The notes beneath the pieces are model-generated. The model was given only the letters and a program-made list of their open reading frames with translations. It searched no databases and had not been told where the DNA came from. Positions 2,919-27,847 of a DNA stretch of 29,277 nt are shown piece after piece. Positions within the stretch are counted from its first letter, which is position 1, and each line of letters opens with the position of its first letter. Source of the stretch: a virus (lineage: Duplodnaviria; Caudoviricetes); IMG/VR virus record IMGVR_UViG_3300048579_000179, positions 1-29,277 of that record. One strand, written 5' to 3'. The position numbers and the translations under genes were made by a program.

Positions 2919-3422
2919 TTAGGGTCGCTGATAGCCCCAGATGGGCGTGTTGTGTTCCCGTGCAGCCAGATACAGCTTTGCCGAACCAATCAGGACGGCC
3001 ACCAGCGGCGTTGCCGTGACCAGAATCGGCGTGATAATCGCGGCCAACCCCTGCGCCTGTGTCCCTAAGCCGAACTTAATCGCCAGCGCGTAGCCAATCC
3101 ACACGACCACCGATGTGACATTTTTCAGGGTGTCGGCGGATGCGACCGATGCCGGAATAAGCACCTTTTCCAGATTGACCAGCGCCGTGACAAAAAGTGT
3201 GCCAGCAATCGACGCCGCCCCGGTAAACAAAGTTGCCCAGACCATGCGCAGGATGTCTTCCGGTGATTCAGTGGTGACAGGTAGTGCCGGTTCAGTCGGA
3301 TCCGTCACTGTGACGTCCGTGCCGGTCCCGCTCGTGCCGGTGTCCTGCGCGTGCAGGCTCACAATGCCCATCAGCAGCACCCCGATGACTATCAATCCAA
3401 TCAGTAAACTTCGCAGTCTCAT
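2919..3422 (-). CDS. Holin-like multi-pass membrane protein
   Basis: Start reassigned to ATG 3422 (AAAGGA RBS). Signal-like N-terminus ending HAQD, a Thr/Gly/Asp linker and about 3 hydrophobic helices; located in the lysis module. Confidence 0.6.
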   Translation of the reverse strand: MRLRSLLIGLIVIGVLLMGIVSLHAQDTGTSGTGTDVTVTDPTEPALPVTTESPEDILRMVWATLFTGAASIAGTLFVTALVNLEKVLIPASVASADTLKNVTSVVVWIGYALAIKFGLGTQAQGLAAIITPILVTATPLVAVLIGSAKLYLAAREHNTPIWGYQRP

Positions 3423-3499
3423 CTGACGTTCCTTTCTTGGCAATTACTTGCCTGACCTCAATAAATGGTGTCAACAGACTGGCATGTCGCCAATCCGTG

Positions 3500-4132
3500 T
3501 TATTCTTTGACGACAAACGGTTCAATTTTGGGCGACGATTCAACCGCCGCTGTCGGTGGCGGCGATGCTCGCAAGGCCAGCATCAACACTTCATTGTTAT
3601 TGGTAATCGACTGCCGTGTTTCTTCATGTAAGACTCTCGCCTCACTTAGAATAGCCCCCACGACACGGGCGATGGTTTCCTGCCCCTGTACAATCTGGCT
3701 ATTAACCGACGCCAGCAGCTTGTCATTGGAGTAAATTTCGTCTTCCGCCCGCTTTTCGTCCATCGCACGAATACGGTCCACCAGCATATTGGTCGTCTTG
3801 ACATGTGCTTCAGAGTTGGCCTGCGCCGCCGTAGAATAGTTGGCCGAACTTTCGCGCATCGCCGTGGCAATATCGGTCATCGAATCGGCCAGCCGGTCAA
3901 TCTTGTTAATGGCGTTGGTCGCCATGTCCAATGTCTTCGTTTCGTGCTCATTGCCGGATTTGCTGGCTTCATTCAGCATTTTCCGGCTTTCACTGAGTTC
4001 CTTCAGCCACGCGCGGGTGGTCAGCAGGAACACAATCAAGGCCACGCCCAACATCACCGTTTCCGGCTTGTCACGGACGCCGTTTAAGACAAATTCAAAG
4101 AAATTGATTTCGGCAAAAATCCAAGTGTGCAT
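3500..4132 (-). CDS. Membrane-anchored coiled-coil protein (lysis module, holin/antiholin-like)
   Basis: GGAGG RBS, one TM segment (VMLGVALIVFLL), then a long helical domain. Confidence 0.55.
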   Translation of the reverse strand: MHTWIFAEINFFEFVLNGVRDKPETVMLGVALIVFLLTTRAWLKELSESRKMLNEASKSGNEHETKTLDMATNAINKIDRLADSMTDIATAMRESSANYSTAAQANSEAHVKTTNMLVDRIRAMDEKRAEDEIYSNDKLLASVNSQIVQGQETIARVVGAILSEARVLHEETRQSITNNNEVLMLALRASPPPTAAVESSPKIEPFVVKE

Positions 4133-4144
4133 ATGGGTTTCCTC

Positions 4145-5317
4145 CTAAGTGACAATCTGTCGGGGTGCAGCGCCAAAATCCACACCCACCGGTAAAAAAC
4201 CCTGATTCAGCCGGAACGCGGCACGGGCGGTCGTATCGTCCGCACCAAACCAGCGCACGGTCTGCGAATTGGCGTCATAGTCAATCTTCTGGATATAAAC
4301 GACCGTCGGGTCAGTCTGAAGGCTGCCATTAAAGGGCAGCAGCGCATCCGTGACGCGGATGGCACGGTCAGGCACCACAAGGTAAGGCGCAACCGGCTTG
4401 CCAAACACGCTGCGCGGCTTCAGCATATTGGCCTTCAGCGCCGTGTATTCCACCGTCAGATTGGCCTGCCGGTAGTAAAACAGCCGCTTGCCGGTATTGG
4501 GATTGGTCGGCAGCACGCCGCAAATCCAGTAGTTACTGCCGTCACCGGCTTCTGCCGTTTTAAGCAGATGTTCCCAGAACGATGACCCTCTGTCCTGCTG
4601 GGCAACGGTGGCTGTGTTGGCGCTAATCTTGGTGGCGTTGGTGTTGTCATAAAAGGTTGCGCCGTTCGGGTCCACACCGATGATGCCCGCCGTATCCGTG
4701 CCGAACTGGCTGGTGGCTGCCGTCAAGCCGGTGAAATATTTCGTCCATTCCAGCGTGTGATAGATGCCCAGCAGTTCGAAGTGGACGATATTGGCATTGC
4801 CCTGTGCCTGACCGATAGCCCGCTGCGGGTACGCCTGCTGCGCCAGAATGGTATCCCGCAGCACCGTCGGCTGTGTCGATGCCGATGGATTCGCGCCGAG
4901 GTCAAGCTGCGTCTGCTTAATACCGTAAATGGCCTGTGACGTGGTGTTGTTGACCACCGCCGTCTGGGTCATGGCGTTGGCCGCGCCGGTGTAGATAACA
5001 CTCACCCGGTTGGACATCTCATCCAGACTGATGGTGTACGCGATCCCGCCCGAATTGAAGGTGATGCGGTTGATGAACCCTTCCCAGATGGGCAGCACCG
5101 CATTATCGACGTAAATGGCGACGAAACAGCCCAAATAATTTTCGAGGACGTACTGCCCCTCGCTGTCCGACTTGACCGCGATGTCGCCGCCGGCAGTGTC
5201 AAACCAGCCCTGATTGCAAATCGAGTGCTGGTAGTTGTAAATGGCGTAGCGGTTTAAGAAGCCGCTGCCCTGTTTCGGACGCTGGTAGATGTGAATATGG
5301 TGTCGCAGGTAGCTCAT
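4145..5317 (-). CDS. Tail tip/baseplate hub-like protein
   Basis: Second gene after the tape measure; IWEGFINRI and SQAIYGIKQ segments resemble hub proteins. Call is mainly from synteny. Confidence 0.6.
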   Translation of the reverse strand: MSYLRHHIHIYQRPKQGSGFLNRYAIYNYQHSICNQGWFDTAGGDIAVKSDSEGQYVLENYLGCFVAIYVDNAVLPIWEGFINRITFNSGGIAYTISLDEMSNRVSVIYTGAANAMTQTAVVNNTTSQAIYGIKQTQLDLGANPSASTQPTVLRDTILAQQAYPQRAIGQAQGNANIVHFELLGIYHTLEWTKYFTGLTAATSQFGTDTAGIIGVDPNGATFYDNTNATKISANTATVAQQDRGSSFWEHLLKTAEAGDGSNYWICGVLPTNPNTGKRLFYYRQANLTVEYTALKANMLKPRSVFGKPVAPYLVVPDRAIRVTDALLPFNGSLQTDPTVVYIQKIDYDANSQTVRWFGADDTTARAAFRLNQGFLPVGVDFGAAPRQIVT

Positions 5318-5320
5318 AAA

Positions 5321-7081: not shown

Positions 7082-7082
7082 A

Positions 7083-9854
7083 TCATTGTCCTCTCAAGGT
7101 AGCCGCTTGGCTGAAACCCAGCCGGTCGGCCACCGCTTCGTTCGGAATATAGTTGGTGTTGTTGATGATGTTGGTGCTGCCGCCGCGTGTGAAGCTGCCA
7201 CCCGGAATATAACCTTGCAGCGCCGCCATAATCGCTTCGGTCGTTTTGTTGTTGAGCACCGCCAGATGCTGATTCGAGGTAATCACTTCACGTCCGGCTT
7301 CACCCGCCATAAAGGTGCCCGTCGTATCCCGCGTGCCTAACGCGTGTTTCTTGGTGGGGGTGTCGCCGCCGTCGCCGGTGGATTGGTTATCCAGTTCGGA
7401 CTGTTTCTGCGCCACTGCCGCGTTTGCACCGGCCAGCTTTTCAGACGTCGCAATCAGGATGCCCATCTTGGTGTTGGCCGCATCCAGTGCCCCCGCCAGC
7501 TTGAAGCCGCTGTCCGTCATGACCGCCATTGAGTTTGCCGCGTCACCCACGGGCGCAGCCGCACCCGATACCGAATCACCTAAGTCGTCCGTGGCGTCCG
7601 CCAAATCTTGCACATCGTCCGCCGCCGTGTCCGCGTACTGCCCGTAAGTCTGCGTCGCATTGCCCACGTCCGTGACCGGCTGTGTGGCCGTGGTGGCCTG
7701 TGTGCCGGTGGTTTCGGTGGCCGTACCCAGCGCCGTGACGCTGGTGGTGGTGATGTCCACACTGCTGGTCGCCTTATCGGATGCCGTAACGGTCAATCCG
7801 GCCTGCTCTTGGAATGAACTAAACGCATCCGTGACCGTGTCGGTCGCCTTCTGTACCGCTTGCGGCGGCGAGGCTTTCAGCAGCGCGTCATTAATCTGCT
7901 GCTGGAGTGCCGCAACCGCTTCCGGTGTAACCACCGGTTCAACGTTCATCGGCGCACCGCTGGCCAGCGTCGGCAGTTTGTTCTGGTCAATCGGCTTTGT
8001 TAAGGTGTCAATCAGTGTCTGCGCTTTGGCAATGGCTTCATCCGAGCCGGTCGCGATGAGTTCGTTAACAGCCTGTCCAACGGCTTTGGTGATGTTGCCC
8101 GGCGTCACCCCGCGCGAAACGGCGGTCTGGATGTCCGCTGCCACATCGTCCGGATTATCAACCTTCAGCTTGAACGTGAGCTGCTGTTCGGCCATGCGGG
8201 CAATGGTCGCGTCCGTGCCTTTCTTGGCTTCCCAGTTAGCCGGTGACATCGATTGAAGTTGGGACACGACTTGCAGGATGCCAATAATGAAATCGCCCAT
8301 CGCGCTTTCGAGACTCAGGAACGTCTGGTCAAGCCCCACCGGCTTCAGTGCGATGGTCAGGGCATCACTCAGCGTGCCGCCTTTTGCCAGCGTGTCGAGT
8401 CCGTCCTGTAGGCCGGTCTTCAGCGCGGCAATCTTGCCCGGTAGGTCGATTTGTTCACTGGATAGGAAGTCTTCAGCCGCTTTCTGCGCCGCCAGCATGA
8501 AGTCGTCAATCGCGCCGTGCAGGCTGTCATCAATCTGGCTGGCCGCGTTGGCCGCTGCACCGGTGACATTCTCAAATACCGCCGCCGCATCTTCCGGTGA
8601 CATCTTCATGAAGGCGCTGAATTCCTTGGCGCCGATTTTGCCGCCGACCAGATTGGCGAACATCTTTTGCTTTTCCGAGTCGGATACCGGCGCTTCCTGA
8701 ATGCTCTTAATCACGCTGGTGAAGAAGTCCGCCGACCATGCCTGTCCCGTTTCCACCGGATTGGCGATGCCCAGCATGTTCAGCGTTTCAGTGACCGAGG
8801 ATTTATCATTGCCCGCCGCTTTGCTGACGTTCTGTTTAATCTTCAGCAGCGTGTTCAGCACGTCCTGCGCACTGGTGAAGCCGTTATCCAGTCCGGTCTT
8901 GATGAAGCCCAGCGCTTCCTGTCCATTCAAACCCATGTCGTGCAGCGCGGTGGAGTTGCGTTTCAGCGTGTCCAGCAAATCGCCACCTTTATTGCCGCCG
9001 TTCTGGAAGGCCGTCACCAGCTCGTCACCGGCTGTCTTAAAATCCGGTGCCAGCTTGTTTTTGACCATCGCGTCCAGTGCGTCCAGCACCTGCTGCGGGT
9101 TCTTATCTTGGAAGGTGTGGGTGAAGGTCAGCGCCGAGCGTACCGCTTCATCAATCGGCACTTTGATTTGTTCGGCCTTCACAATCAGGTCGGCCACTTG
9201 GTCAATACTGTCGCCGAGGTCGTCATAAAAAATGTTTTTGATAAGTTCCCGCGCGTTGGGGATGGCGTCGCCGGTGGTCGCACGAACTTTCGCCACGGCA
9301 TCATCCAGCGCCAGCATCGGGTCAATGGCGAAGCTGCTGAACTTGCCGAACACTTCCAGCGCATTACCGGCGATGTTCCAGACGGTTTCCAGCACCTTCA
9401 AGTTCTTAATCATGTTGACGCTGTCCAGCACCGACTTGGACTGGTCGGTCTGGGCCACATCAACAGTCGTCTCAATGGTTTCGCCGTCGGCGGGCAGTTT
9501 GGCCGCATCGCCTTCCACCTCACCATCCGCCGTGAAGTGAACCGTCTCACCATTCAGCGGTAGGTCGCCAAGGTCGCCTTCCACATCCGCTTCGACCGTA
9601 AAATCGACCGTTTCACCATCCAGCGGCAGGTCTTCAATGCCGTCCACTTCCGCATCAACGGTGATGTCAATCGTTTCGCCGTCGGTCGGCAGCTCAACCT
9701 CAAAGCTGGCCGCATCCACATTGGCGCTGACACTGATTTCCAAGCTGCCGAGGCTATCGAAATAATCCGCCAAGAAAATGGCGTCATTCATGGCTTGGGT
9801 GTAGTCGGCGGTGTCGGCTACCAGTTTGATGCCGGATTCAGGGTAGTTGGTCAT
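7083..9854 (-). CDS. Tail tape measure protein
   Basis: 923 aa, Ala-rich and helical, with N-terminal IKLVADT and C-terminal HALG...MAGEAGREVI motifs; lies downstream of the tail chaperone. Confidence 0.9.
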   Translation of the reverse strand: MTNYPESGIKLVADTADYTQAMNDAIFLADYFDSLGSLEISVSANVDAASFEVELPTDGETIDITVDAEVDGIEDLPLDGETVDFTVEADVEGDLGDLPLNGETVHFTADGEVEGDAAKLPADGETIETTVDVAQTDQSKSVLDSVNMIKNLKVLETVWNIAGNALEVFGKFSSFAIDPMLALDDAVAKVRATTGDAIPNARELIKNIFYDDLGDSIDQVADLIVKAEQIKVPIDEAVRSALTFTHTFQDKNPQQVLDALDAMVKNKLAPDFKTAGDELVTAFQNGGNKGGDLLDTLKRNSTALHDMGLNGQEALGFIKTGLDNGFTSAQDVLNTLLKIKQNVSKAAGNDKSSVTETLNMLGIANPVETGQAWSADFFTSVIKSIQEAPVSDSEKQKMFANLVGGKIGAKEFSAFMKMSPEDAAAVFENVTGAAANAASQIDDSLHGAIDDFMLAAQKAAEDFLSSEQIDLPGKIAALKTGLQDGLDTLAKGGTLSDALTIALKPVGLDQTFLSLESAMGDFIIGILQVVSQLQSMSPANWEAKKGTDATIARMAEQQLTFKLKVDNPDDVAADIQTAVSRGVTPGNITKAVGQAVNELIATGSDEAIAKAQTLIDTLTKPIDQNKLPTLASGAPMNVEPVVTPEAVAALQQQINDALLKASPPQAVQKATDTVTDAFSSFQEQAGLTVTASDKATSSVDITTTSVTALGTATETTGTQATTATQPVTDVGNATQTYGQYADTAADDVQDLADATDDLGDSVSGAAAPVGDAANSMAVMTDSGFKLAGALDAANTKMGILIATSEKLAGANAAVAQKQSELDNQSTGDGGDTPTKKHALGTRDTTGTFMAGEAGREVITSNQHLAVLNNKTTEAIMAALQGYIPGGSFTRGGSTNIINNTNYIPNEAVADRLGFSQAATLRGQ
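9456..9692 (-). repeat. Four tandem ~21-22 aa acidic repeats in the tape measure N-terminus
   Basis: Repeat units begin LPTDGETIDITVDAEV, LPLDGETVDFTVEADV, LPLNGETVHFTADGEV and LPADGETIETTVDV. Confidence 0.85.
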
Positions 9855-10787: not shown

Positions 10788-11352
10788 AGAAGCGGATGCC
10801 AGCCGTCACCTCGTCCGGCGTCAGTGCAACCGTCTGGATGGCCAGTTGAATCAGCCGCCCGTATTCATTCGCCGCCACGGCCAGCTTGTTGTTCTCGTCC
10901 ACCGTCGGTTGGTTCCACGTCAGCACGATGTGAAACAGCACCGCTTCATAGTCGTCATCCGGCAGGTTGGCAATCTTGCGCAGGCTGATGAGCTGCGGCA
11001 TGAATCCGGCTACCAAGTCCTGCGGCGTCGGGTATTTCGGGAAGCGCACCGCATAATCAAAAATAGCGCGGTCAGCCCACGTTTTGCGCTGGGCGTCCAC
11101 TGCCGCACAATCAGCAAGATACTGCGGGTTGTCTTCCGCAGGCGTCATCTGATTGTCCGAAAAGCCGTTTTCTTCCGGCTTCTGATACGGTTTCTTGTCG
11201 GGATACGGGAATAAATCTGCCGCTTTGAGCTGCACCGCTCGCAGCGTCGGCAGGTTGACCGGCGTGATGTGTGCCACCACGCCGGACTGTGTTTCGTAAA
11301 TGGTGATGGCCGGGCGGCCAGTCCCGTTGGCTGCGTCATTACCTGACATCAT
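10741..11352 (-). CDS. Tail assembly chaperone (gpG-like)
   Basis: Lies between tail tube and tape measure, has an AAGGAG RBS, and overlaps a start-less downstream frame. Confidence 0.75.
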   Translation of the reverse strand: MMSGNDAANGTGRPAITIYETQSGVVAHITPVNLPTLRAVQLKAADLFPYPDKKPYQKPEENGFSDNQMTPAEDNPQYLADCAAVDAQRKTWADRAIFDYAVRFPKYPTPQDLVAGFMPQLISLRKIANLPDDDYEAVLFHIVLTWNQPTVDENNKLAVAANEYGRLIQLAIQTVALTPDEVTAGIRFFRPVLSERAAGRVAR

Positions 11353-11373
11353 GACTCCTTTTTGAGTGGACGG

Positions 11374-12930
11374 TTACTGCGCCGGACGAACCATGCCGAT
11401 GAACGCGTATGTCCCGTGTGTTGGCCCCACACAAATCGCCATGTTCTCATTGGCCGCCGCAATCGACACCATACCGAAGTTTCCGGGCGTCACATAGTCG
11501 CCGATGATTTCCACATCGTTGGCCAGTGCGCCGCCGCTAAAATCGCGCAGGACACGGCTGCTGCCGTCGGTGTAGGACTGCACCACAAACAGCGTGTTAC
11601 CCTGATAGCCGATGAAATCCATATCGGCAATCGAGCCAATACCCGCCTTATCGAACTTCATGTTCTGGAACACCGGCTTGACGGCGTTGATGTTGCGGCT
11701 GCGCCAGATTTCGCCGCCTGCCGTGCCCAAATACACTTCATCGCCGCGTGTGGAGGGCGTCCGGATGCTGTTGATGTTGGACGACAGCACGTTCAAGCTG
11801 GCATCCTTGACACTGACGACCGCGCCGACGAATGACGCCGCGCCCGGCACCTTGGACAGACGAATAAGCGTGCCGCTGTTGCCGCCGACAAACGCGTTGC
11901 CACCCGGCTGGGCATCAATCGCATTCAGGTTGTTGCTGGTCAGTGCGCCCGTGTCATAAATCTTGCTGAAGCTGACACCGCCGTCGGTGCTCAACCAGAT
12001 ACGACCACCCGCGCCGACCGCCAGAATGGTCGCTGCATCCACCGCCACCGCATACTTGGGGAAGTTGGTGCCGGATTCGGAAATGCCGCTGGCCGATGCC
12101 CACAGCAGCGGATCCGTGATGCCGTTGTAAATGTCGGCAAGCTGTGCATAGACCGGCGCTTTGGTGTCACTGAAGACCACCACGCGGCTGCCTGCCAGCA
12201 CCACATCCAGTGCATCCGAACCAATCAGCGCACCGATGCGCACACCGGTACGGGTCACCCAGCGGTCAGTGGTGTAGTACAGCCACGGAGCCGAGCCGCC
12301 GCCATAAGCCGGTGATGCATCTTTGAGCGTCACGGCCAGCCATGCATCTTCCTCAGTGGTGCCGAGTCCGCAGGCCCCTTGGCAGGTTTCGGCGCTGATG
12401 TTGATGACCCGCTTGAAGGCCACGTCACTGGTCGTCAGACTGATGTCGTCATGCGCCAGCGGCGTCCATTTGGCTTCGAGCGAAGCGGCCAGCGCGGCGG
12501 TGCGGTTGACATCGGTGGCCTGTCCATCGTTCATCGCCAGCCCGTTGTCATATCCGAAGCTGGTGATGGTCGCCTGCAAATAACCAATCATGCCCGGCGA
12601 CACATACGCCGTCATGTTGGCGCGGTTCGGGCTGCAGTACTGGCGGCTGCGGATGTTGAAGGGGCAGTTCAGCCGCTTCAGCGCGTTTTCTGAACTGAGG
12701 GGATAGGTCAGGGTGGCCGTCCAGTCATCCGGATTGCCGGTGTAAATCAGCGTGCGCGGTGAAAGTCCGCCTCTATCGTCACGCCCCCACATGGTTGAAC
12801 GGGCACGCGCACCGCCCGACGGCGCATCCAGCATCCCGTTCTGGTCAAATACCTGCCACGGATTGCCCGGGCCGCCCGGCTGAATGTCTACGGTACTGGC
12901 GTCGCCGCCATTTTTCCAAGGTACTGGCAT
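11374..12930 (-). CDS. Major tail (tube) protein with C-terminal Asp-box/BNR beta-propeller
   Basis: Synteny (neck, this gene, chaperone). The C-terminal ~330 aa contain blade repeats AVGAGGRIWLSTDGGVSF, FVGGNSGTLIR and YLGTAGGEIWRSRN. Confidence 0.65.
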   Translation of the reverse strand: MPVPWKNGGDASTVDIQPGGPGNPWQVFDQNGMLDAPSGGARARSTMWGRDDRGGLSPRTLIYTGNPDDWTATLTYPLSSENALKRLNCPFNIRSRQYCSPNRANMTAYVSPGMIGYLQATITSFGYDNGLAMNDGQATDVNRTAALAASLEAKWTPLAHDDISLTTSDVAFKRVINISAETCQGACGLGTTEEDAWLAVTLKDASPAYGGGSAPWLYYTTDRWVTRTGVRIGALIGSDALDVVLAGSRVVVFSDTKAPVYAQLADIYNGITDPLLWASASGISESGTNFPKYAVAVDAATILAVGAGGRIWLSTDGGVSFSKIYDTGALTSNNLNAIDAQPGGNAFVGGNSGTLIRLSKVPGAASFVGAVVSVKDASLNVLSSNINSIRTPSTRGDEVYLGTAGGEIWRSRNINAVKPVFQNMKFDKAGIGSIADMDFIGYQGNTLFVVQSYTDGSSRVLRDFSGGALANDVEIIGDYVTPGNFGMVSIAAANENMAICVGPTHGTYAFIGMVRPAQ

Positions 12931-12943
12931 AATAGTATCCCTC

Positions 12944-13447
12944 TCACGCTACACGACTAATTTCGGTTTGAACCCGGCTCTGCAAGGTCGGAATCAACTT
13001 CTCCAGATACGTTTCCATAAACTTCCGCGGCGCGATGCCCGGATGCACCACCTGCTGCTTACTGACCCATTTCCCGAAGTGCTGTCCGGTGCCCTTGTTG
13101 TACTGGGCTATCGGCATGGTTCGGGCGCTGTAACCCACCTGAAAGCGCAGATACTTACCCGGCACCACCACTTTAGGGATGAGATACGGCCCCTTCGTGC
13201 CCTTATCCACATACCCGAAAATCTTCAGGACACGCTTTGTCCCGCTCGGCTTAATCAGCGCTTCGATGCGGCGTTCATCAACCGTCAGGGTTTCCTTAAA
13301 ATCCGGTCGGTTGCGCCACTGCCGCACGGTGTCACGGCTGGTGGACTGTAAATCATCCGAGGCATTCTGGATTGCCTGTAAGGTTGCCCCGCGCACCCGC
13401 CGGTCAATGTCTCGAATGGTCTTACCTGCCGCTTGAAGTGCCATCAC
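12944..13447 (-). CDS. Neck/tail completion protein (HK97 gp10-like)
   Basis: Basic 167-aa protein with YVDKGTKGPYLIP and VVHPGIAPRKFM motifs. Confidence 0.75.
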   Translation of the reverse strand: MMALQAAGKTIRDIDRRVRGATLQAIQNASDDLQSTSRDTVRQWRNRPDFKETLTVDERRIEALIKPSGTKRVLKIFGYVDKGTKGPYLIPKVVVPGKYLRFQVGYSARTMPIAQYNKGTGQHFGKWVSKQQVVHPGIAPRKFMETYLEKLIPTLQSRVQTEISRVA

Positions 13448-13453
13448 CCACCC

Positions 13454-13484
13454 AATAAAAAAGGACGGTCTGCATGGCCGTCCT
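13454..13484 (-). terminator. Intrinsic terminator immediately upstream of the tail genes
   Basis: Minus strand AGGACGG-ccatgcaga-CCGTCCT-TTTTTATT. Confidence 0.8.
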
Positions 13485-13596
13485 GACTACGGTGTCCTGA
13501 CTTGTTTGTAGTTTCGTTAAGGGCGGGATGAGCCGCCCCACGAAATAACCGTGTGCAATAGTCAGGGTGTTGCACCACATGCCTGTGTTGGTTATT
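13454..13596 (-). ncRNA. Candidate ~140-nt structured leader or small RNA
   Basis: Begins ~7 nt after an extended -10 and ends at a terminator. Stems AATAACC/GGTTATT and GTGCAA/TTGCAC close the loop CACCCTGACTA; a second stem is TTCGT-GGGCGG/CCGCCC-ACGAA. No ORF is evident. Confidence 0.6.
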
Positions 13597-13602
13597 GAAA
13601 GT

Positions 13603-15078: not shown

Positions 15079-15112
15079 AGCGTAATTCCTTCCGCTAATC
15101 AATCCTTTTGAG

Positions 15113-15170: not shown

Positions 15171-15184
15171 TATAATTATATCGC

Positions 15185-16345: not shown

Positions 16346-16354
16346 AGGCCGCCT

Positions 16355-16501: not shown

Positions 16502-16504
16502 GGC

Positions 16505-18463: not shown

Positions 18464-18468
18464 GGGTG

Positions 18469-20123: not shown

Positions 20124-20346
20124 CGGGCATCCTGAGTTCATCATAAGGAACGTTCAACACGCAGAACGTTCGGCGCGGGTCGTCTAAATGTTCAAATTCC
20201 AAATCAACCGTGCCGCGCATCGGCACATGGTCAACGGCTTTCACGGCGCGGCCAACTTTGCCGATATACCGCCGGGTGTCTGGCGAAAACACGTCTTTTC
20301 GGTGGACTACCCACTGTACTTGTGCGCCAAACTTGACCTGACTCAT
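20113..20346 (-). CDS. Hypothetical protein, 77 aa
   Basis: Translationally coupled (ATGA) to the upstream glycosyltransferase and fills the gap. Confidence 0.7.
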   Translation of the reverse strand: MSQVKFGAQVQWVVHRKDVFSPDTRRYIGKVGRAVKAVDHVPMRGTVDLEFEHLDDPRRTFCVLNVPYDELRMPDDH

Positions 20347-21098
20347 GTAATCACATCCATCCCGTAAAACGGATGCTCACTCATCCACGCGGGCATGTAG
20401 TCGAGTGGATTGACCTGTTCATAATTCCAGAAGGTGCTTCCAACTGGATGCAAATCAGTGCTCCTGTTTTTGTTCATAAACACGTCGTTAAACCAGTTCA
20501 CATCGCGCCGCAGCTCGCCCAGATGCCCGTGTATCTGCCACTTGTAGGCCACGATGTCAGGCCGCGTCGCGTAGCCCATGTGATTGACGACGCCTGATGA
20601 TGGATACCATGACGATTCGCCGGATGGAATGCGCGGGAAGGTCACACGCGCAGGATACGCCGGGTCATGCAGAATGCAGCGGTGAAACGAACGCCAGTAG
20701 TGGATAAAGGGCACGCGTAGGTAACGGAATGGCTGTGAATATTGAACCGAGCCAGCGTAGCGCATGATATTGTTAATCAACTTTTCGCTGTAAATCTCAT
20801 CACTATCCACCGACAGAATCACATCAGCATCCGGCGCATACTGTAAGATGCTGTCCCGCTGCTGGCCTTCATACGTCCAGTCGCCGCGGTGCCACTTCAG
20901 CTTCAATCCGGCGGCCTGCCACGCAATGTCATGCAGTTCATCCTCACTGTCGGGACAAACTGCGTCCGAATAATGGCCGTGCGATGGCCGTGTGGCATAC
21001 AGCACATGGTATTCGTCAATGTGGTCAATCACCGACCGAATCGCCCAGCCGAGATAATCCGCACCGTAGCGCAGAGCGGTGTAGCCAATCACCTTCAT
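20343..21098 (-). CDS. Glycosyltransferase, GT-A fold (GT2-like)
   Basis: YLGWAIRSVIDHID, EGQQRD, ILSVDSDEIY (DxD) and VNHMGY; start ATG 21098 with ATGA overlap. Confidence 0.85.
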   Translation of the reverse strand: MKVIGYTALRYGADYLGWAIRSVIDHIDEYHVLYATRPSHGHYSDAVCPDSEDELHDIAWQAAGLKLKWHRGDWTYEGQQRDSILQYAPDADVILSVDSDEIYSEKLINNIMRYAGSVQYSQPFRYLRVPFIHYWRSFHRCILHDPAYPARVTFPRIPSGESSWYPSSGVVNHMGYATRPDIVAYKWQIHGHLGELRRDVNWFNDVFMNKNRSTDLHPVGSTFWNYEQVNPLDYMPAWMSEHPFYGMDVIT

Positions 21099-21637
21099 TG
21101 ATACGCCCCTGCTTTCGGCAAATCCCACAGGCATTTCAGTGTGTGGGCCGTGCTGTCATACGACCACGCCGGACAATCCCCCAGCACCGGTTCAGGCGTC
21201 GCCGGTACATACACACCATATTGGCCGTCGGCGCAGGGCTTAGTGTCCCATGTGTGCAGTTCCAGTGTGGTGGTCAGTGCGCCGCTGAAGGTCACCGTGA
21301 AGACGTAAGGCGAATCTTCCGCGTGGGCATCCAGATACCAATCGTCGTGCAGCCCCGGCGACGTCACAAAATGTTCCGGTGTATTGATGACCGCCGATCC
21401 GTTGTTGGTGTTTCCGAACTGCACTGTGAACGGTTCGACGCCGTCCGATTGGTAGCCGAAGTGGATGCGGTAGTGGATGTCACCAAGCTGCTCGACACAG
21501 CCGGGCGTGAAGATGGTGAACGGCGGTGGATTGTCCTGCGCGTGGGTGAAGCTCAACCCAATGAGCATCAAAGCGATGACCACCAGAAACAGCACCCCGA
21601 TAAATAGACCTTCACTAAAGGCATCGAGTCGCTTCAT
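21095..21637 (-). CDS. Secreted or membrane-anchored protein of unknown function
   Basis: GGAGG RBS; hydrophobic N-terminus ending THAQD, then a beta-rich domain with 4 Cys. Confidence 0.7.
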   Translation of the reverse strand: MKRLDAFSEGLFIGVLFLVVIALMLIGLSFTHAQDNPPPFTIFTPGCVEQLGDIHYRIHFGYQSDGVEPFTVQFGNTNNGSAVINTPEHFVTSPGLHDDWYLDAHAEDSPYVFTVTFSGALTTTLELHTWDTKPCADGQYGVYVPATPEPVLGDCPAWSYDSTAHTLKCLWDLPKAGAYQ

Positions 21638-21951
21638 TTTTGAACCTCCAATAATGCTTGATAGGGTTCGGCTAGTTTTTCAAATTCCGGCATGACCTTG
21701 ACGCGCACCACATGGTCTTCCGGCAGCGCCAGCAGCAGCCGACGGTAAAAGCGCAGCCACGCGCCGAGCTGCACCAGCATTTGCTTACGCGTCGGGTTTT
21801 CGACCTGTTTGCTCATGTTGCCCAGCGCCAGAAACACGGCGTAATCGCTTTGCGACCAGTCCACGTTCGGCAGTCCCAACAGCATTTGCACTTCCATCTG
21901 GGCGGTTTGCAGTGCCGGTCGCATCTCACGAAACGGGATGAGTCTAGACAT
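21634..21951 (-). CDS. Hypothetical protein, ~105 aa
   Basis: Overlaps both neighbouring genes; predicted helical. Confidence 0.7.
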   Translation of the reverse strand: MSRLIPFREMRPALQTAQMEVQMLLGLPNVDWSQSDYAVFLALGNMSKQVENPTRKQMLVQLGAWLRFYRRLLLALPEDHVVRVKVMPEFEKLAEPYQALLEVQK

Positions 21952-22744
21952 TCGCTTCAACTACTTTCTGGAAGGTGTACTGCTCGCATAACAGTTGATG
22001 CAGTGCCAGCGCATAATCCCTCAACATCCGTTCATCTTTCAGCACGTTGGCGGTGAATTCAGCTAGATGTTTGTAATCGGCCTGCACCATGTACGAATAA
22101 CTAAAGATGCCGCGTTCGTTGACGGTTTCGGTAATCATCGGCAGCTTGTGCGCCGCCGCTAGACACCAACGCAGCGGCGCAATGGTCGGCATGTTGTCAT
22201 GCTGATGGACGTGAAGCATCACCCTGCTGGACAAGAGTCCTGCGGAACGTGCTGTTCCCCATTGGTTTTCGGTTGGCATCAGCGATAATCCGTATTCACG
22301 AAGCTGATGGGTAATCACCTGCCGCCGATGAGTTTGGTAGCTAATCTGGGCAACACCTTTTATCCGTCTCAAAGGCCAAATGTCAGGGCATTCATTCAGT
22401 CCGGCATTCCCGCCAACCGGCACATACCGTGCGCCAATTTTGTTGGCATACCATTTATCAGACGCCCAGACTTCAGCCACACCCGGCGGCTCATTGACGT
22501 CTGCCCGCCAATCCGTCCGCCATTCGAGTTCCCAGTGAATGATGTAGGCTTTCGGCTGCTGCCAGCCATCCAGCCATTCGTCATTCAGCGGTGTGATGAT
22601 GTAGGTGTTGTCGCTCTGCGGGTCCAACTGCGACAGTGGAATCACTGGATAGCCGGACAGTTCGACCAGTTTGAAAAAGTCGGTGTAGGAACGGTAGCCG
22701 CCCTGCAAATAGAAATCGGTGGCACAAAAAATAACGTTACCCAT
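21944..22744 (-). CDS. Putative glycosyltransferase (degenerate GT-B-like)
   Basis: EVWASD, SRVMLHVHQH, PLRWCLAAAHKLPMITET and YTFQKVV resemble a GT-B C-terminal domain; cluster context supports the call. Confidence 0.6.
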   Translation of the reverse strand: MGNVIFCATDFYLQGGYRSYTDFFKLVELSGYPVIPLSQLDPQSDNTYIITPLNDEWLDGWQQPKAYIIHWELEWRTDWRADVNEPPGVAEVWASDKWYANKIGARYVPVGGNAGLNECPDIWPLRRIKGVAQISYQTHRRQVITHQLREYGLSLMPTENQWGTARSAGLLSSRVMLHVHQHDNMPTIAPLRWCLAAAHKLPMITETVNERGIFSYSYMVQADYKHLAEFTANVLKDERMLRDYALALHQLLCEQYTFQKVVEANV

Positions 22745-22970
22745 TGTTCCAACCTACAACTTCCGATTCAACAATTAAGTATTGGCTGCCATCGGATTGA
22801 ACAGGCGTTTTCCACTGTTCTAATTCTTCATACCAATCCGATTGAGGAATGTGGCAGACATCCTCAATATCCTGTTTCAGTCCATCGATGGACGCGTAAA
22901 TTCGCAATGCTTTTTCGTCATACATCGACTGTGTTCTGACCATGAAGCACTGAAACACAATGGCATTCAT
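22737..22970 (-). CDS. Hypothetical protein, 77 aa (variable-slot gene Y)
   Basis: MNAIVFQCF...VVGWNNG; ATGA-coupled to the chimeric ORF, AT-rich, overlaps the next start. Confidence 0.7.
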   Translation of the reverse strand: MNAIVFQCFMVRTQSMYDEKALRIYASIDGLKQDIEDVCHIPQSDWYEELEQWKTPVQSDGSQYLIVESEVVGWNNG

Positions 22971-23299
22971 AGGTTTAACCGCCAGCCGGTGAAGCCGTGC
23001 AGCCACAGCGCCACGCCTGCAATCGCCAGCGCGTCCGTGACCACATTGCGCCCAATGAGACTGAGTATCAATGCCGCCCACACCATCAGGCAGATGATGC
23101 GGGCTTTCGGCTGCTGCCAGCCGTCCAACCATTCATCATTCAGCGGCGTGATGATGTAGGTGTTGTCGCTCTGCGGGTCAAGCTGCGACAGTGGAATCAG
23201 CGGATAGCCGGACAGTTCGACCAGCTTGAAAAAATCGATGTAATAACGGTAGCCGCCATCCAGATAGAATTGAGTTGCACAAAAGATGATGTCAGACAT
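22967..23299 (-). CDS. Chimeric 110-aa ORF: glycosyltransferase N-terminus fused in frame to membrane protein C-terminus
   Basis: Residues 1-66 match the start of 21944-22744; IICLMVW...WRLNL is identical to the end of 23564-23905. Confidence 0.85.
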   Translation of the reverse strand: MSDIIFCATQFYLDGGYRYYIDFFKLVELSGYPLIPLSQLDPQSDNTYIITPLNDEWLDGWQQPKARIICLMVWAALILSLIGRNVVTDALAIAGVALWLHGFTGWRLNL

Positions 23300-23300
23300 A

Positions 23301-23567
23301 TCAGTCCTTTATAGGAAAGTAGCGCGAATAACCGCCTAAACGCATGTCGCCGTAGCCAACCCGCTCTTGATGGTCAATCGTCAACGGCATGTCGGGGTGG
23401 GTTTGACGGATGTGAGCGACTTCCGCCATCGCTTCATCCAAAGACCGGCATTCCTTATGGCAGAAGGCATCATTACTGTAGAGAATGCCCCACACGTCCC
23501 ACCATGCGTCATCCGTCGGCTTGTATCCGCTGAACTGCTCGAAGTAGACCTGCTCGGCTTGATTCAT
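23301..23567 (-). CDS. Hypothetical protein, 88 aa (variable-slot gene X)
   Basis: MNQAEQVYF...YFPIKD; ATGA-coupled to the upstream gene. Confidence 0.7.
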   Translation of the reverse strand: MNQAEQVYFEQFSGYKPTDDAWWDVWGILYSNDAFCHKECRSLDEAMAEVAHIRQTHPDMPLTIDHQERVGYGDMRLGGYSRYFPIKD

Positions 23568-23905
23568 AGGTTCAACCGCCAACCGGTGAAGCCGTGCAGC
23601 CACAGCGCCACGCCTGCAATCGCCAGCGCGTCCGTGACCACATTGCGCCCAATGAGACTGAGTATCAATGCCGCCCACACCATCAGGCAGATGATGCAGT
23701 CCAGCAGGCCGTTCTTAGATGGAAAATAAGCGGCGACATCATGCCCTGGCTCGGATTTCAATTCCCACCCGCGTCGTCCATGCCATCGGCCACCGCCGAT
23801 TTCACGAATCCGTTCAAAGATGCCAAACGGCCCGTGTGTTTTGGTCACTGCGTAACTGATGTACCAAGCGGCGGCTGCGTAATACAGCACATCCAAAATA
23901 GACAT
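23564..23905 (-). CDS. DUF1360-like membrane protein
   Basis: Pattern of a TM segment, GPFGIFERIR, LLDCIICLMVW, then two TM segments. Confidence 0.7.
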   Translation of the reverse strand: MSILDVLYYAAAAWYISYAVTKTHGPFGIFERIREIGGGRWHGRRGWELKSEPGHDVAAYFPSKNGLLDCIICLMVWAALILSLIGRNVVTDALAIAGVALWLHGFTGWRLNL

Positions 23906-24762
23906 TAGACCAGCCCGCTTTCCTTGAGGATGACGTCCCGCTTGGGAGCCAGTGCGTTGACATCCTGCACCGCGCGGAACAAATGCGGCGTCTGCTCAAT
24001 ATCGGCTGGATTGACATAAATCTTTGACCCGTTGCCGCCGACGTATACGCGTCCGGTGGCAACGCCGACTTCACTGCGCATTCCGGCCCACAGCGTCTGG
24101 GCGAGTACATCGCCGGGCTGCTCGGCACCGGGATTCACTTGTGCCGGTTGTCCCGGCTGACCACAACATGCCATGATGGTGAATTGCCCTCCATTTCGTG
24201 CAAACACATCGTCCATAATCGCCTTTTTATCGGCGCGTTGTTTAAAAGAGAGTGACCGCTGTCCGTGTTGAGTGTAGTGGAGCAGCGCCTTGTCCACGTG
24301 CAGGCCGCAAACCCCGGCGCGGTGGCTGCGCAGATAGAAGTCCACGTCTTCATGCCCGGGCAGTGATTCATCAAATCCGCCCAGCGCTTTGAAGATGGCC
24401 GTTGGATACAGCGTCGTCACCAGATGCGAACGGTAAACATTCGATGCCCCGACGCACAGGTTGGGTTTGCGCAGCACCGAATCGCAGTACCAGTTGGTAT
24501 AAACGTAATAGCCGGTGTGGTACGCCCGCAGACATTCCTCGACAAAGGTCGGTTCCAGCACGTCATCGCCGTCTAAAAAGACTAAAAATGGTGTTTCGGC
24601 AAACATCGCGTCATTCCGCAGTCGGGCAGGCGTGTCTTTTGACAAACCACTGATGACATTGCACGGAATCGTCTGGCGTTCGGCGCTCTCAATGGCACGG
24701 ATCACCAGTTCGGCATGATGAGGGGCATAGGGGATATAGATGGAAACCAATGGCTGCGGCAT
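23905..24762 (-). CDS. Glycosyltransferase family 2 with extra C-terminal domain
   Basis: LVSIYIPY, RAIESAERQT, ARLRN, VFLDGDD and GGFDESLPGHEDVDF; start ATG 24762 behind AGGA. Confidence 0.92.
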   Translation of the reverse strand: MPQPLVSIYIPYAPHHAELVIRAIESAERQTIPCNVISGLSKDTPARLRNDAMFAETPFLVFLDGDDVLEPTFVEECLRAYHTGYYVYTNWYCDSVLRKPNLCVGASNVYRSHLVTTLYPTAIFKALGGFDESLPGHEDVDFYLRSHRAGVCGLHVDKALLHYTQHGQRSLSFKQRADKKAIMDDVFARNGGQFTIMACCGQPGQPAQVNPGAEQPGDVLAQTLWAGMRSEVGVATGRVYVGGNGSKIYVNPADIEQTPHLFRAVQDVNALAPKRDVILKESGLV

Positions 24763-24803
24763 GTGATTGTCCTGACACAATCGTCTGGGTCAGCGGTCGC
24801 CGG

Positions 24804-24836: not shown

Positions 24837-24864
24837 GTACCACACGGGGGATGAAAGCCGGGGC

Positions 24865-26328
24865 TTACGAAACGGTGTAGTTGCCGTCCCAGCGGGTCGC
24901 ACCACCATCGCGGTAGAACTCGGTCACATCCGGATAAGCACTGCGGGTTGGCGCTTGGTAGGTGAACTGCATGGTGTTGATGACGGCTGCCAAGAACGGC
25001 GCGTCCAATACCAGACGGAACTTGCCCGCGAACAGCAGCTCCATGCAGTAGCCGGTGCGCTGTTTGGTGCCGAGCCACATACCGTTGTTGTAGGCCGCGA
25101 ACTCGTTGGGCGCGATGAACTCGGCAAAAGACATCGCGTCGGCGTTGTTCATAACCTTGTACTGAATGTTGAGTAACGGCTGCCCCATCCAGTCAATCGG
25201 GATGATAAAGAAGTCCTGAGCCGTGTACACATTGTTACCGGCTTTGGTCATCGGAATGCCGTCACTGAAAATCACCCGCACCGGCTCGTCATCAATGAGC
25301 AGGTACCGGCCATCCCACATTTGGAGTTGCAGCTTACGCACTTCCGACGCATCGGTGTAGCTCGGGTTGCCCGCGCTCCCTTGGCACCGGCTGACGTAAT
25401 ACTCGCAAGCCCAGATATAGGTCAGGGCACGGAACATTTCCATGCGCATCCCGATAGCCCATGTCACGCCATCCAAGCCGACATCTTCAGCCAGCACCTT
25501 CAAGGCAAAGTAGGTATCAACCACTGCCTGTTGGAAGGTGCGCCCGCCGACGGATGCGTCGATGCCCGTGCCCCAGTTGATGACGATACTGTCAGCACCC
25601 GGACAGGCGACTCCGGTGTCCATATCAACCCTACCGGTGGTGATTTGGCGTTCCAGTCCGTCGAACTCTTTGAAGAAACCGAGCTGCGCTGCAGCAGGCG
25701 CTTTGGCACGGTTGCCGGTGACCAGTACCCTCTCAAAGGCACGATCCATGGCGACGCCGGTCACACCCAGTTCAACCGCCAACGTCGCCGCATCGCGGTT
25801 GCTGATGTCCAACCGATTCATCAAATCCGGTACGAACTGGTTATTGGACTGTTTCATGTTGAGGATGCGCTTGGCAGCGATGTCGGTGTAGTCGGCATAT
25901 TCACCGGCTTCAGCGATGTTGACCACTTTGGTCTTCCACGCGCTCTTGCCCCACGGGTAATTTTGAACACAGCGTTTGAGCTGCCCTGCCGTCGGGAAGA
26001 GGCCGCAGAAGTCAGATGGGTTGCTACCTTCTTCAGCGGTGACGCCGGTCATGATGCCAATTTTTTCATTGGCGATCCGGCTCTGGCGCACGCCGACGAT
26101 GCTAGAAAGGCTGCGCGGGCGCGCAAAGGATGAGAACATTTCCGGGCGGATGCCGGGATAAGAAAACGTTCCATAGTCACCGCTGCCGTCGGCGTATGGC
26201 CCGTAAGCCGGGTTGTGAGTGTCCGCTGTGCCGGAAGCGTTATGCTTCTCAACCGCGATAAACGCATTGCGGATTTCGGCCCACTCTTGAGCCGAATATT
26301 TACGGTCGTTAATGGTTATGTCGGGCAT
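24865..26328 (-). CDS. Major capsid protein
   Basis: 487 aa, directly after the protease/scaffold and followed by a strong terminator. The FERVLVTGN...EFDGLERQI segment resembles HK97-fold capsids. Confidence 0.8.
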   Translation of the reverse strand: MPDITINDRKYSAQEWAEIRNAFIAVEKHNASGTADTHNPAYGPYADGSGDYGTFSYPGIRPEMFSSFARPRSLSSIVGVRQSRIANEKIGIMTGVTAEEGSNPSDFCGLFPTAGQLKRCVQNYPWGKSAWKTKVVNIAEAGEYADYTDIAAKRILNMKQSNNQFVPDLMNRLDISNRDAATLAVELGVTGVAMDRAFERVLVTGNRAKAPAAAQLGFFKEFDGLERQITTGRVDMDTGVACPGADSIVINWGTGIDASVGGRTFQQAVVDTYFALKVLAEDVGLDGVTWAIGMRMEMFRALTYIWACEYYVSRCQGSAGNPSYTDASEVRKLQLQMWDGRYLLIDDEPVRVIFSDGIPMTKAGNNVYTAQDFFIIPIDWMGQPLLNIQYKVMNNADAMSFAEFIAPNEFAAYNNGMWLGTKQRTGYCMELLFAGKFRLVLDAPFLAAVINTMQFTYQAPTRSAYPDVTEFYRDGGATRWDGNYTVS

Positions 26329-26384
26329 AGTAAGTTGAGCCTCATCAATATGGCGAATGATAAATGGTGAACTAACGCCTAAGC

Positions 26385-27734
26385 TTACTTAAGCGGCAGT
26401 CCGGTAAGGGAATCCTTCGTCGGCAGCGCATCTTTGAGCACCGGCTTCTCGGCATCGGTGACCACGGTGCTTTCATCATGGGCAGCACGGCGCAGCGGCT
26501 GATTCACCAGTGTGCGCAGAGCAGCGTTATCCTGCTTCAGCGCCTGCAGCTCTTTTTCAATCGCCGCCAGCTTGTCGTCACGGGTTTTCAGTTCGCCGGT
26601 CTGCTTTTCAGTCAGCTCGGTCAACTGCCGGTCGAAGGCATCCTGCACTTCAACCATTGAGAGGAGGAGTTCGGCGTTCTGCTTCATCGCCTCGCCCCGC
26701 GCCTTCACGACCGCATCACTGCCGCCGCCCAGCGCCTTGGCTTCAATGCCACGGTCTGCCAGAGTCGCCCGTAATTTTTCAGGGCCTTCTTTGAGCAGGC
26801 CGACAGCATCCTTGATTCCGAATTCCTCTTCGAAGAGGGTATTCAGGAACGTGTCGCGCTTCGATTTCTCGACCATAGGTAACACCTCACTTAAAGTAAA
26901 CATGTTGGATGCCGCTGCACGGGGCAACGAAGTAGACTCATATTTGGCAATCGACTTGTAGACGCCCTGCGCCTTGTCAGTCTTGCTGGCAAAGAACCCT
27001 TGAGATGCGCCCCATTCCATTTCGGGGTGTTTCTCAACATAGTTGTAAAAAGCTTTGGCCACCGGCGTCTGCTCTTTTTCGCGCCACAGTTCGACCAAAA
27101 ACCCTGACCACACGTCCGCGAACACGAGGTCACTAATCGACCCCAGTTCCTTGGTGTGCCAGATGTAATGGGCGTTATCGCCGATAAACTTGCCGTCGTC
27201 CGTCCAGCACTTTTCGACGTAGTCTTCGATGGCTTGGGTGGTGACGTGGGCATTGTCGCGGTCACGGTAGCCGTTAGACGTAATCATGAACATGTAGCGC
27301 CGACCAGCATTGTCCTTCAGCACCTGCGTCCCATCTTTGAGCGGCTGCCCTTTGATGCGGTTTTGCAGTTGCGTCCAGACCGACGGCACCGGGTCAATGA
27401 TGAGGTCTTGCCGCGTCCCGTGGTCATGGCCCTCTTTTTCGTGGCTCATTTCCATCGGTTCGGCTTCAGGCGCTTCAACAATCACCACCGGCACAGGCTC
27501 AACCGTCAACGGTTCGGGCGGCGGCGTGGCTTCCCATCGGTCACAGTAGCCGGTCGCCACTACCGGTTCAGGCCAGCAATCGACGATAAAACAGTCTTGG
27601 TTATGGGCCATAAACCAGCGGCAGTTGGCGCAGGCTTTGCTGCGGGTCGCCGACAGCGGCAGATAGTTGACTTCTTTTTGAGCCAGCGTCCCTTGAAAGG
27701 CTTTGGTTGTTTGGACAGGTTTTGTGTCGGTCAC
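26385..27734 (-). CDS. Prohead protease-scaffold fusion with N-terminal HiPIP-like Cys domain
   Basis: SNGYRDRD, IWH, GASQGF and YESTSLP...ASN follow the motif order of HK97-type proteases, and the C-terminus is a coiled coil. Start moved to GTG 27734 (GAGG RBS) because 27761 lies inside a terminator. Confidence 0.75.
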   Translation of the reverse strand: MTDTKPVQTTKAFQGTLAQKEVNYLPLSATRSKACANCRWFMAHNQDCFIVDCWPEPVVATGYCDRWEATPPPEPLTVEPVPVVIVEAPEAEPMEMSHEKEGHDHGTRQDLIIDPVPSVWTQLQNRIKGQPLKDGTQVLKDNAGRRYMFMITSNGYRDRDNAHVTTQAIEDYVEKCWTDDGKFIGDNAHYIWHTKELGSISDLVFADVWSGFLVELWREKEQTPVAKAFYNYVEKHPEMEWGASQGFFASKTDKAQGVYKSIAKYESTSLPRAAASNMFTLSEVLPMVEKSKRDTFLNTLFEEEFGIKDAVGLLKEGPEKLRATLADRGIEAKALGGGSDAVVKARGEAMKQNAELLLSMVEVQDAFDRQLTELTEKQTGELKTRDDKLAAIEKELQALKQDNAALRTLVNQPLRRAAHDESTVVTDAEKPVLKDALPTKDSLTGLPLK

Positions 27735-27751
27735 GGCAGCCTCGATAAACG

Positions 27752-27777
27752 AAAAAAGCACATGAGTTGCATGTGCT
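27752..27777 (-). terminator. Intrinsic terminator upstream of the protease/capsid genes
   Basis: Minus strand AGCACATG-caact-CATGTGCT-TTTTT. Confidence 0.8.
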
Positions 27778-27838
27778 GCCCTGACCAGCGTCCTTTACCT
27801 GACTAAAGGGGGTTTATAACGTGTTGTTCACTATCAAA

Positions 27839-27847
27839 ATCATACCA
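27839..27847 (-). promoter_or_regulatory. Extended -10 promoter (TGgTATGAT)
   Basis: Near-consensus TGn-TATgAT just after the portal stop, ahead of a short leader and terminator. Confidence 0.55.

Follow-up and report, generated by a model that had tools for sequence, protein, structure and literature searches.

A repeated GUCAGG box and a complementary RNA loop in the late region of a prophage: a candidate RNA lock-and-key on late attenuators

Why does the same short RNA motif, GUCAGG, recur at terminators and translation starts along the late region of a prophage, and what reads it? This question was raised by a first-pass annotation of IMG/VR record IMGVR_UViG_3300048579_000179 and was pursued here on the whole 29,277-nt contig (the window), in which the prophage is represented by its late half, on the minus strand, with the early half outside the window. 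Related loci were collected with profiles of the capsid and tube proteins, and six near-whole related prophage contigs (G001-G006) were compared. Judged from these sequences, the box and a loop complementary to it constitute a real and conserved feature, for which an RNA lock-and-key acting on late attenuators is the best reading and activation in trans the likeliest mode of action.

All eight minus-strand copies of GTCAGG reported in that annotation were confirmed in position, and its suggestion of enrichment between genes was borne out: the box occurs on the mRNA strand eight times in 3023 nt of intergenic or start-proximal DNA versus four times in 23772 nt of coding-sequence interior (Fisher p=8.5e-6, post hoc, and ~0.035 after correction for 4096 hexamers; open reading frames (ORFs) were called crudely and the copy at 28584 lies outside the scored range). 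It ranks second among hexamers for regulatory enrichment, behind the Shine-Dalgarno-like AAAGGA. The total count in the window, 13 minus-strand and 12 plus-strand copies (25 versus 12.9 expected from shuffles), was rejected as evidence, given that all but one of the plus-strand copies (11/12) fall within coding DNA. The box is enclosed by a Watson-Crick stem of 4 bp or more (with pads of up to 3 nt) in five of the eight regulatory copies and in none of the five coding copies, the background being 6.4%. The placement of most copies in hairpin loops therefore stands for these five and fails for the copies at 3451 (where the GG pairs in a neighbouring stem), 13496 (no stem) and 20337 (only three contiguous pairs); likewise, the loops are not fixed hexaloops, as they measure 6-11 nt and mostly 7. 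The claim of a single orientation, finally, overlooked that GTCAGG also stands on the plus strand at 13561-13566; read on the mRNA strand, this copy gives the complementary loop CCCUGAC.

The RNA that presents this anti-box loop, termed unit B, is composed of the following elements (window positions):

13454-13597, minus strand: unit B RNA, before the putative tail genes; a three-way junction presenting the anti-box loop
13603..13611, minus strand: extended -10 element TGnTATACT of promoter B; the -10 lies here in the window and in 7/7 distinct relatives covering the site
13545..13595, minus strand: three-way junction of P1, P2 with a GGCA tetraloop (13580-13583) and P3, from folding and covariation
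13561..13567, minus strand: anti-box loop CCCUGAC, complement of GUCAGG(G), capping P3, from the sequence and its relatives
13513..13544, minus strand: P4, a GC-rich hairpin predicted in 8/8 RNAs, with differing sequence
13496..13501, minus strand: box 1 of unit B, single-stranded, conserved in 8/8
13478..13492, minus strand: box-2 hairpin of unit B (box 13482-13487), mutually exclusive with terminator B
13457..13483, minus strand: intrinsic terminator B, predicted by folding; the final two bases of box 2 serve as its outer two G

Unit B is present in all seven distinct relatives whose DNA covers the site. Its promoter carries a -35 element in G004, G005 and G006 (TTGAC(G/C)-18 nt), and a plain terminator immediately precedes promoter B in G003 and G006, which makes unit B a separate transcription unit in these two genomes. 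The junction begins 7-8 nt past the -10 element, and an A-rich linker, the stemless box 1, the box-2 hairpin and terminator B follow P4; this terminator was not called by a simple terminator scan of the window. Folding of 13505-13598 yields z=-3.65. Among six aligned RNAs, 12 of the 23 junction pairs are changed on both sides and 88.7% of cells are paired, which none of 500 shuffles equalled, the structure tested having been taken from the same sequences. The GGCA tetraloop of P2 is retained in 7/8 RNAs on four pairs that vary between lineages. No Rfam family matches the RNA (the only window match at E<=5 is an unrelated, sub-threshold snoRNA model), while a covariance model built from six GUCAGG-type RNAs (R2) recovers the RNA of G006 at E=4e-7 and, weakly and at the syntenic place, that of G003 (E=1.3, or 0.033 within the locus); a match inside a G004 gene (E=0.078) is probably due to chance.

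Four features point to this strand as that of the RNA: a promoter located 7-8 nt ahead of P1, a GNRA-type loop in 7/8 RNAs, G-U pairs and the polarity of the terminator. A DNA-level site, such as one at which a MarR protein reads GTCAGG either way, or an antisense arrangement with the 13561 hairpin on the opposite strand, would also make the inverted copy co-vary with the direct copies; moreover, a MarR gene occurs in 5/7 genomes and one P3 mismatch of the window becomes a G-U pair on the opposite strand. The compensatory stems, the GNRA-type loop and G-U pairs of the sense strand, and the location of the sites between promoter and terminator nevertheless make such an explanation most improbable. 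The preference of the first-pass annotation for an RNA-level site over a DNA operator was upheld; the boxes are conserved with covarying stems and sit at attenuators and translation starts. The RNA of phage phi29, pRNA, forms multimers for assembly and packaging, and it could be argued that loop-box pairing here similarly builds RNA multimers, since one RNA combines a three-way junction with self-complementary segments. This structural role is just as improbable: no Rfam match to pRNA or a relevant family was obtained, and it would not account for the boxes that match the loop in a second leader and at the starts of genes.

That second leader, unit A, lies between the portal-like and scaffold genes and is arranged as promoter, hairpin 1, hairpin 2 and terminator:

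27839..27847, minus strand: candidate extended -10 element of promoter A, from the sequence; its position in the window is uncertain, with a second -10-like hexamer at 27813-27818
27792..27809, minus strand: hairpin 1, with the box (27798-27803) in its loop, in all 12 tabulated records
27775..27789, minus strand: hairpin 2, GCUG-GUCAGGG-CAGC, whose last two bases belong to the terminator's outer pairs
27751..27777, minus strand: intrinsic terminator A, from a terminator scan; the inner stem covaries and the outer G-C/C-G pairs are fixed

Promoter A is sigma-70-like in the six relatives G001-G006 (TTGACA-18 nt-CATA(C/A)T); the window version is less clear and was not called by a consensus scan of the window. 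The 12 records in which unit A was tabulated were chosen for carrying hairpin 2, and three of them are near-identical. The stems of hairpin 1 vary in sequence and length between these records yet pair, and the stem of hairpin 2 is invariant, its loop reading GUCAGGG, GUUAGGG, UCGGGG or GUCAGAG according to lineage. In L022 a single box hairpin lies on the terminator. Comparison with related prophages, a check that had been recommended for the candidate element, thus found both units conserved with compensatory stems.

Pairing of the RNA with the boxes is likely, since loop and boxes have changed in concert among related phages. The anti-box loop CCCUGAC is identical in L015, G001, G002, G004 and G005, and reads CCCUAAC in G006 and CCCCGAA in G003. 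For G006, the sequence GUUAGG in the unit A boxes led to the prediction of a loop CCCUAAC before the result was seen, and this loop was then found ~65 nt before two GUUAGG boxes and a terminator. In G003, the four unit A and unit B boxes read (U/G/C)UCGGG and pair with the loop of that genome at 5-6 of 7 positions (five G003 sites were tabulated). Outside G003, all 31 tabulated box sites, from seven genomes, form 6-7 of 7 Watson-Crick pairs with their own loop, and box 2 of unit A pairs 7/7 in each of the seven. The change extends to unit A, 14 kb from unit B and without a loop of its own. The regulatory DNA of G006 holds six copies of GUUAGG and none of GUCAGG, while the five GUCAGG genomes scored hold 5-8 copies of GUCAGG and none of GUUAGG; because of this exchange, a mere Shine-Dalgarno bias was ruled out. 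Furthermore, as the tube tree nests G006 with the GUCAGG phages G004/G005 (97/98) and places G003 apart, the loop/box changes in G006 and G003 are likely two separate events. The ancestral loop tolerates either box change (C to U or A to G) as a G-U wobble.

Additionally, boxes are found at the translation starts of several genes:

24765..24782, minus strand: box hairpin with a 6-bp stem over the ribosome-binding site of a glycosyltransferase-like gene (ATG 24762)
20337..20346, minus strand: box in codons 2-4 of an ORF of 77 amino acids (aa), in a weak hairpin, from the sequence and stem scoring
11335..11355, minus strand: box hairpin over the start of a putative tail-assembly-chaperone gene (ATG 11352), with a box at this junction in 7/7 genomes

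At the first of these genes, L013 and L015 have the box at the same 14-nt distance from the ATG on a different stem, and no box is at that distance in G001-G006. The ATG-A-GTCAGG layout of the second recurs in G005 and L018, where it opens a different gene, and the chaperone start bears a GUUAGG hairpin in G006 and still GUCAGG in G003. In most conserved cases these boxes lie 10-18 nt before the AUG or just inside the gene, and pairing there would therefore block ribosomes.

The first-pass annotation had attributed all of these sites to one factor, either a protein or the RNA at 13454-13596. The RNA has gained direct sequence support through the loop/box co-variation; a protein site of the ANTAR or boxB type has not. 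A more general form of the protein explanation supposes that an ANTAR-like dimer, or a protein of unknown fold, binds paired box hairpins and antiterminates, while the loop acts in cis only, hiding the unit B boxes and delaying the tail operon, and followed the boxes as the specificity of the protein drifted. In principle this accounts for the co-variation equally well, and the required cis pairing is predicted; dual hairpins of which the second overlaps a terminator are the ANTAR layout (PMC3369931); the stem of hairpin 2 is invariant in sequence; and boxes and loop need not always agree, as at the mismatched chaperone site of G003. We regard this explanation as unlikely, since the system tolerates loop sizes of 6-11 nt, linker lengths of 1-10 nt and boxes without a stem, box 2 of unit A pairs 7/7 outside G003, equal to or better than the unit B boxes, and both box changes are wobble-compatible transitions. 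No candidate protein was recognised, the only recognised regulator in at least 5/7 genomes being a MarR-type DNA binder. In the search for an RNA-binding gene, as had been advised, 114 proteins from four relatives, which are mostly early-region proteins of up to ~330 aa and do not represent all ORFs, gave no match above cutoff to an RNA-binding family, and no ANTAR (PF03861) or CsrA (PF02599) domain was found in five related phage records (phage records only), two of which are at least 90% complete.

With regard to pairing between the RNA and its boxes, the direction of the effect was approached by folding. The terminator state of the unit A leaders is favoured over hairpin 2 by 2.2-5.2 kcal/mol in 10/10, and with box 2 of unit B occupied, terminator B is dismantled in the window, L015 and G004 and becomes shorter in G005, G006 and G003. 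Since the terminator is the default and box 2 occupancy weakens terminator B, pairing should favour read-through. A free loop-box duplex amounts to -9 to -11 kcal/mol, an upper bound for a kissing interaction. Action in trans is indicated by the matching boxes of unit A, a unit without its own loop whose transcription takes place 14 kb ahead of unit B. Our best model, in which we place moderate confidence, is that the 13454-13597 RNA is probably a trans-acting kissing-loop antiterminator that would open the head and tail operons. Host RNA polymerase would start at promoters A and B and stop at the terminators by default, producing a leader of ~60-90 nt (A) and an RNA of ~140 nt (B). The loop would then pair with box 2 of the nascent leader, whereby the small hairpin is held or the outer G-C pairs of the terminator are covered, and transcription would continue. 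At gene starts, where the box overlaps the Shine-Dalgarno sequence or AUG, the same pairing would lower translation and tune stoichiometry; we infer both effects of the box, on read-through and on translation. Box 1 of the same RNA is predicted to mask the loop in the lysogen, and release of the loop by processing, by a helper protein or by the rise in copy number after replication would, at a guess, create a threshold switch.

The same RNA-RNA pairing could bear the opposite sign, the RNA being a constitutive lysogeny or immunity repressor like P4 CI or P1/P7 C4 that blocks ribosome-binding sites and promotes termination, with the loop variants as immunity groups. The arrangement here, with an effector RNA ahead of its own targets in a single transcript, is that of CI (PMC4825925), and C4 has three stems and loops that occlude ribosome-binding sites, its specificity being set by changes of a few bases (PMC5320573); in addition, boxes overlap the Shine-Dalgarno sequence or AUG at several starts, promoter B looks constitutive and loop diversification suits immunity. 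Repression nonetheless appears unlikely as well, given that the terminators are already favoured without any ligand and that in 5-6 of 8 RNAs the terminator's outer G-C pairs become covered when box 2 of unit B is paired, which should weaken the terminator.

Antitermination in trans has in turn to contend with several observations. The consensus fold pairs the anti-box loop with box 1 of the same RNA, and free loop may thus be scarce; in the folding model, blocking box 2 in G001 and G002 barely alters terminator B; and the logic is mixed, combining activation at terminators with repression at starts. At the tube-chaperone junction of G003 the box is still GUCAGG, with 5/7 pairs and an internal mismatch to the G003 loop, and the G003 hexamer TTCGGG is not enriched (one regulatory versus six coding copies), just as box enrichment is weak in G004 (rank 65). 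Strand-wise folding energies favour the sense strand in only 5/8 and do not clearly discriminate. Most of the phage proteins match no family, which leaves room for an unrecognised RNA-binding protein, and with only two informative changes, co-variation alone cannot separate pairing in trans from pairing in cis combined with a protein reader. Somewhat more tentatively than the model itself, we propose that this temperate phage family of Chloroflexota uses a diffusible RNA, and not a Q- or N-like protein, as its late activator, with a lineage-specific lock-and-key loop code.

The distribution of the element was assessed by several searches. Single-protein searches of viral contigs and annotated phages returned no relative. 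A scan for the hairpin-2 pattern gave 80 matches, of which only four were true unit A sites, all already known; a scan for dual-box loci gave at least 120 loci, with only one true unit B among the matches listed; and a box-agnostic pattern scan gave 59 matches, six of them known records and none new. A paired GUCAGA variant is present in L046:1356-1490 (unit A) and L020:2634-2810 (after the capsid gene), and a single GUCGGG variant in L022:1464-1583; their partner RNAs were not retrieved, and the 46 matches to the partner loop predicted for the L046 variant include none found by model R2. No box/anti-box unit was found in the more distant capsid or tube relatives G007, G008, L008, L009, L024, L028, L031, L036, L042, L055 and L287-L297. 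The early modules differ between relatives, and the unit B RNA travels with the late module. G006 (L012) is a mosaic whose capsid and tube are 31% and 73% identical, respectively, to those of the window, and it keeps both regulatory units. A repeated inverted element with GTCAGG, unlike the box hairpins, is present in three intergenic regions of G003 (oriented positions 11205, 27961 and 33000; L142-L144).

Distant sister prophages (tube 26-29% identical) have a different conserved element over intrinsic terminators at equivalent late positions, a bulged hairpin of the form GCC-pyrimidine bulge-stem-loop-YAGC-GGC:

L288:9373; L289:6047, 9054; L290:5830, 9372; L291:1130; L292:7434: bulged hairpin of the distant sisters

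Some of these lie behind a promoter and a long non-coding leader. The bulged hairpin looks like a second attenuation signal and is possibly read by a protein.

The prophage, from an Anaerolineae-like bacterium, adjoins host DNA, Sua5 and yjbR being host genes in the first kilobase of the contig; the nearest named homologues of Sua5 (70-76% identity) are from Anaerolineae/Chloroflexi. The yjbR gene (825-1076) ends at 77 aa versus 118 aa in cluster relatives and adjoins the last phage gene, and for this reason its truncation probably marks the attachment/integration site. The phage genes next to the two units, and one further box copy, are as follows:

24865..26328, minus strand: major capsid protein, a 487-aa ORF, from its fold and atlas neighbours
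26385..27734, minus strand: putative scaffold/head-assembly gene, between the portal-like and capsid genes and directly behind terminator A, its start set by relatives
11374..13447, minus strand: putative tail-completion gene (167 aa) and putative tail tube gene (518 aa), behind terminator B, from synteny before a tape-measure-like gene
3451..3456, minus strand: box copy preceding a membrane-protein (holin-like) gene by 34 nt, probably outside the system

The AlphaFold model of the capsid ORF (pLDDT 83.5) has HK97-type phage capsids as its top Foldseek matches (E 2e-9), and SU10_MCP is among the atlas neighbours. The putative scaffold protein matched no family of known function in family scans, and it diverges far more from its counterparts than the flanking genes do (branch 4.57), yet the same leader is kept. 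The tail-completion/tube gene pair is common to 7/7 genomes, and the tape-measure-like gene (7083-9854) matches PF10145 below cutoff; we infer the labels scaffold, tail-completion, tube, chaperone and holin from gene order together with this weak match. The copy at 3451 was dropped from the system because it is not looped and was not found upstream of the homologous gene in 4/4 relatives checked, and the proposed link to the lysis region was dropped with it.

Between the capsid and tail genes lies a block of glycosyltransferase and methyltransferase genes (13632-24780), common to 7/7 genomes, which may glycosylate the virion. It includes a GIY-YIG/NUMOD3 homing endonuclease (14293-15102), just before the glycosyltransferase gene upstream of unit B, and interleaved duplications (22539-22744/23094-23299, 86%, and 22965-23100/23562-23697, 99%) that disrupt small genes of the glycosylation cluster. 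In G005 (L148:2119-3740) a Tet/JBP oxygenase adjoins a TET-associated glycosyltransferase, which suggests hypermodification of DNA bases. The MarR-family gene, not found in the window, lies directly behind the capsid gene in G003-G006 and in the early region of G001 (L136:757-1158). The end of the chaperone-extension gene is duplicated directly over 164 nt (9860-10023 and 10515-10678, 96%), and the copies flank a dual-specificity phosphatase ORF (10036-10512), an arrangement that resembles an insertion with a long target duplication.

To our knowledge, phage gene control in this host phylum has barely been studied. The switching of virion genes by RNA would be unusual, as phages usually give this job to a protein. 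If the model is true, the lytic programme would be timed in a new manner, by an RNA that acts in trans to open the intrinsic terminators of late operons; self-masking would make this RNA a copy-number threshold switch, and it would be an example from nature of a transcription-activating RNA that is programmable. The loop/box pair has at least three natural variants, which lend themselves to simple allele-swap tests, in vitro or in a laboratory host, and might be used as compact RNA switches, and even under the rival signs the element would be an undescribed RNA family with a readable target code. The literature, searched by title and the start of the abstract, with most subscription journals and the supplements of viral-RNA catalogues outside coverage, contained no description of the element or of a phage trans-acting RNA antiterminator.

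How, then, does this element relate to known systems? The lambda nut site combines boxA with a boxB that has a GNRA-like pentaloop and is bound by N protein. The present box differs from boxB in loop size and sequence, and no N-like family was seen among the proteins scanned. A CsrA/RsmA site, which has GGA in the hairpin loop and is bound by a CsrA protein, is likewise not indicated, as the seventh base is U, G, A or C, box 2 of unit A never reads GGA and PF02599 is absent from the five phage records. T-box leaders are switched by antiterminator pairing, and they resemble the present element in that loop pairing between a leader and an RNA acting in trans controls transcription or translation. 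Here the ligand would be a dedicated phage RNA instead of a tRNA and the target a minimal hairpin; neither a T-box match in Rfam nor a tRNA gene called by ARAGORN was obtained in the window.

HK022 put, EAR and conAn2 similarly provide RNA-based antitermination in mobile-element operons. They are described as cis-only, processive and independent of terminator sequence (PMC8191782), whereas the matched boxes at a leader 14 kb upstream imply sequence-specific action in trans here, and no Rfam match to them was found. The ANTAR systems (EutV, NasR, AmiR) employ two small hairpins, the second over an intrinsic terminator (PMC3369931), an arrangement shown by unit A in 12 records; in unit B the second hairpin alone is present. 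ANTAR-related RNAs are also described at translation starts. The present loops (GUCAGG, UGUCAGG, GUCAGGG, GUUAGG, UCGGGA and others) depart from the A1/G4 hexaloop rule (PMC3369931), and a complementary RNA loop co-varies with the box here.

The phage loop-pairing RNAs of closest build, CI and C4, are processed from a longer precursor and both repress; for the present RNA, folding predicts the opposite sign at the terminators. P4 CI is a leader-derived RNA with complementary targets on its own transcript that controls premature termination (PMC4825925); it terminates replication genes, whereas the geometry observed here predicts read-through into structural genes, with targets up to 14 kb away. 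P1/P7 C4 (RF01695) is a three-stem phage RNA whose loops pair with short targets partly over ribosome-binding sites, changes of a few bases setting specificity (PMC5320573), and the RNA found here likewise has three stems and a loop that complements repeated targets and changes with them from phage to phage. The two differ in that the present RNA has no Rfam match and a single 7-nt loop instead of the two of C4 (a' and b'), in that its targets are hairpin loops at the intrinsic terminators of late operons, and in that C4 represses and maintains lysogeny, whereas activation is predicted for the RNA described here.

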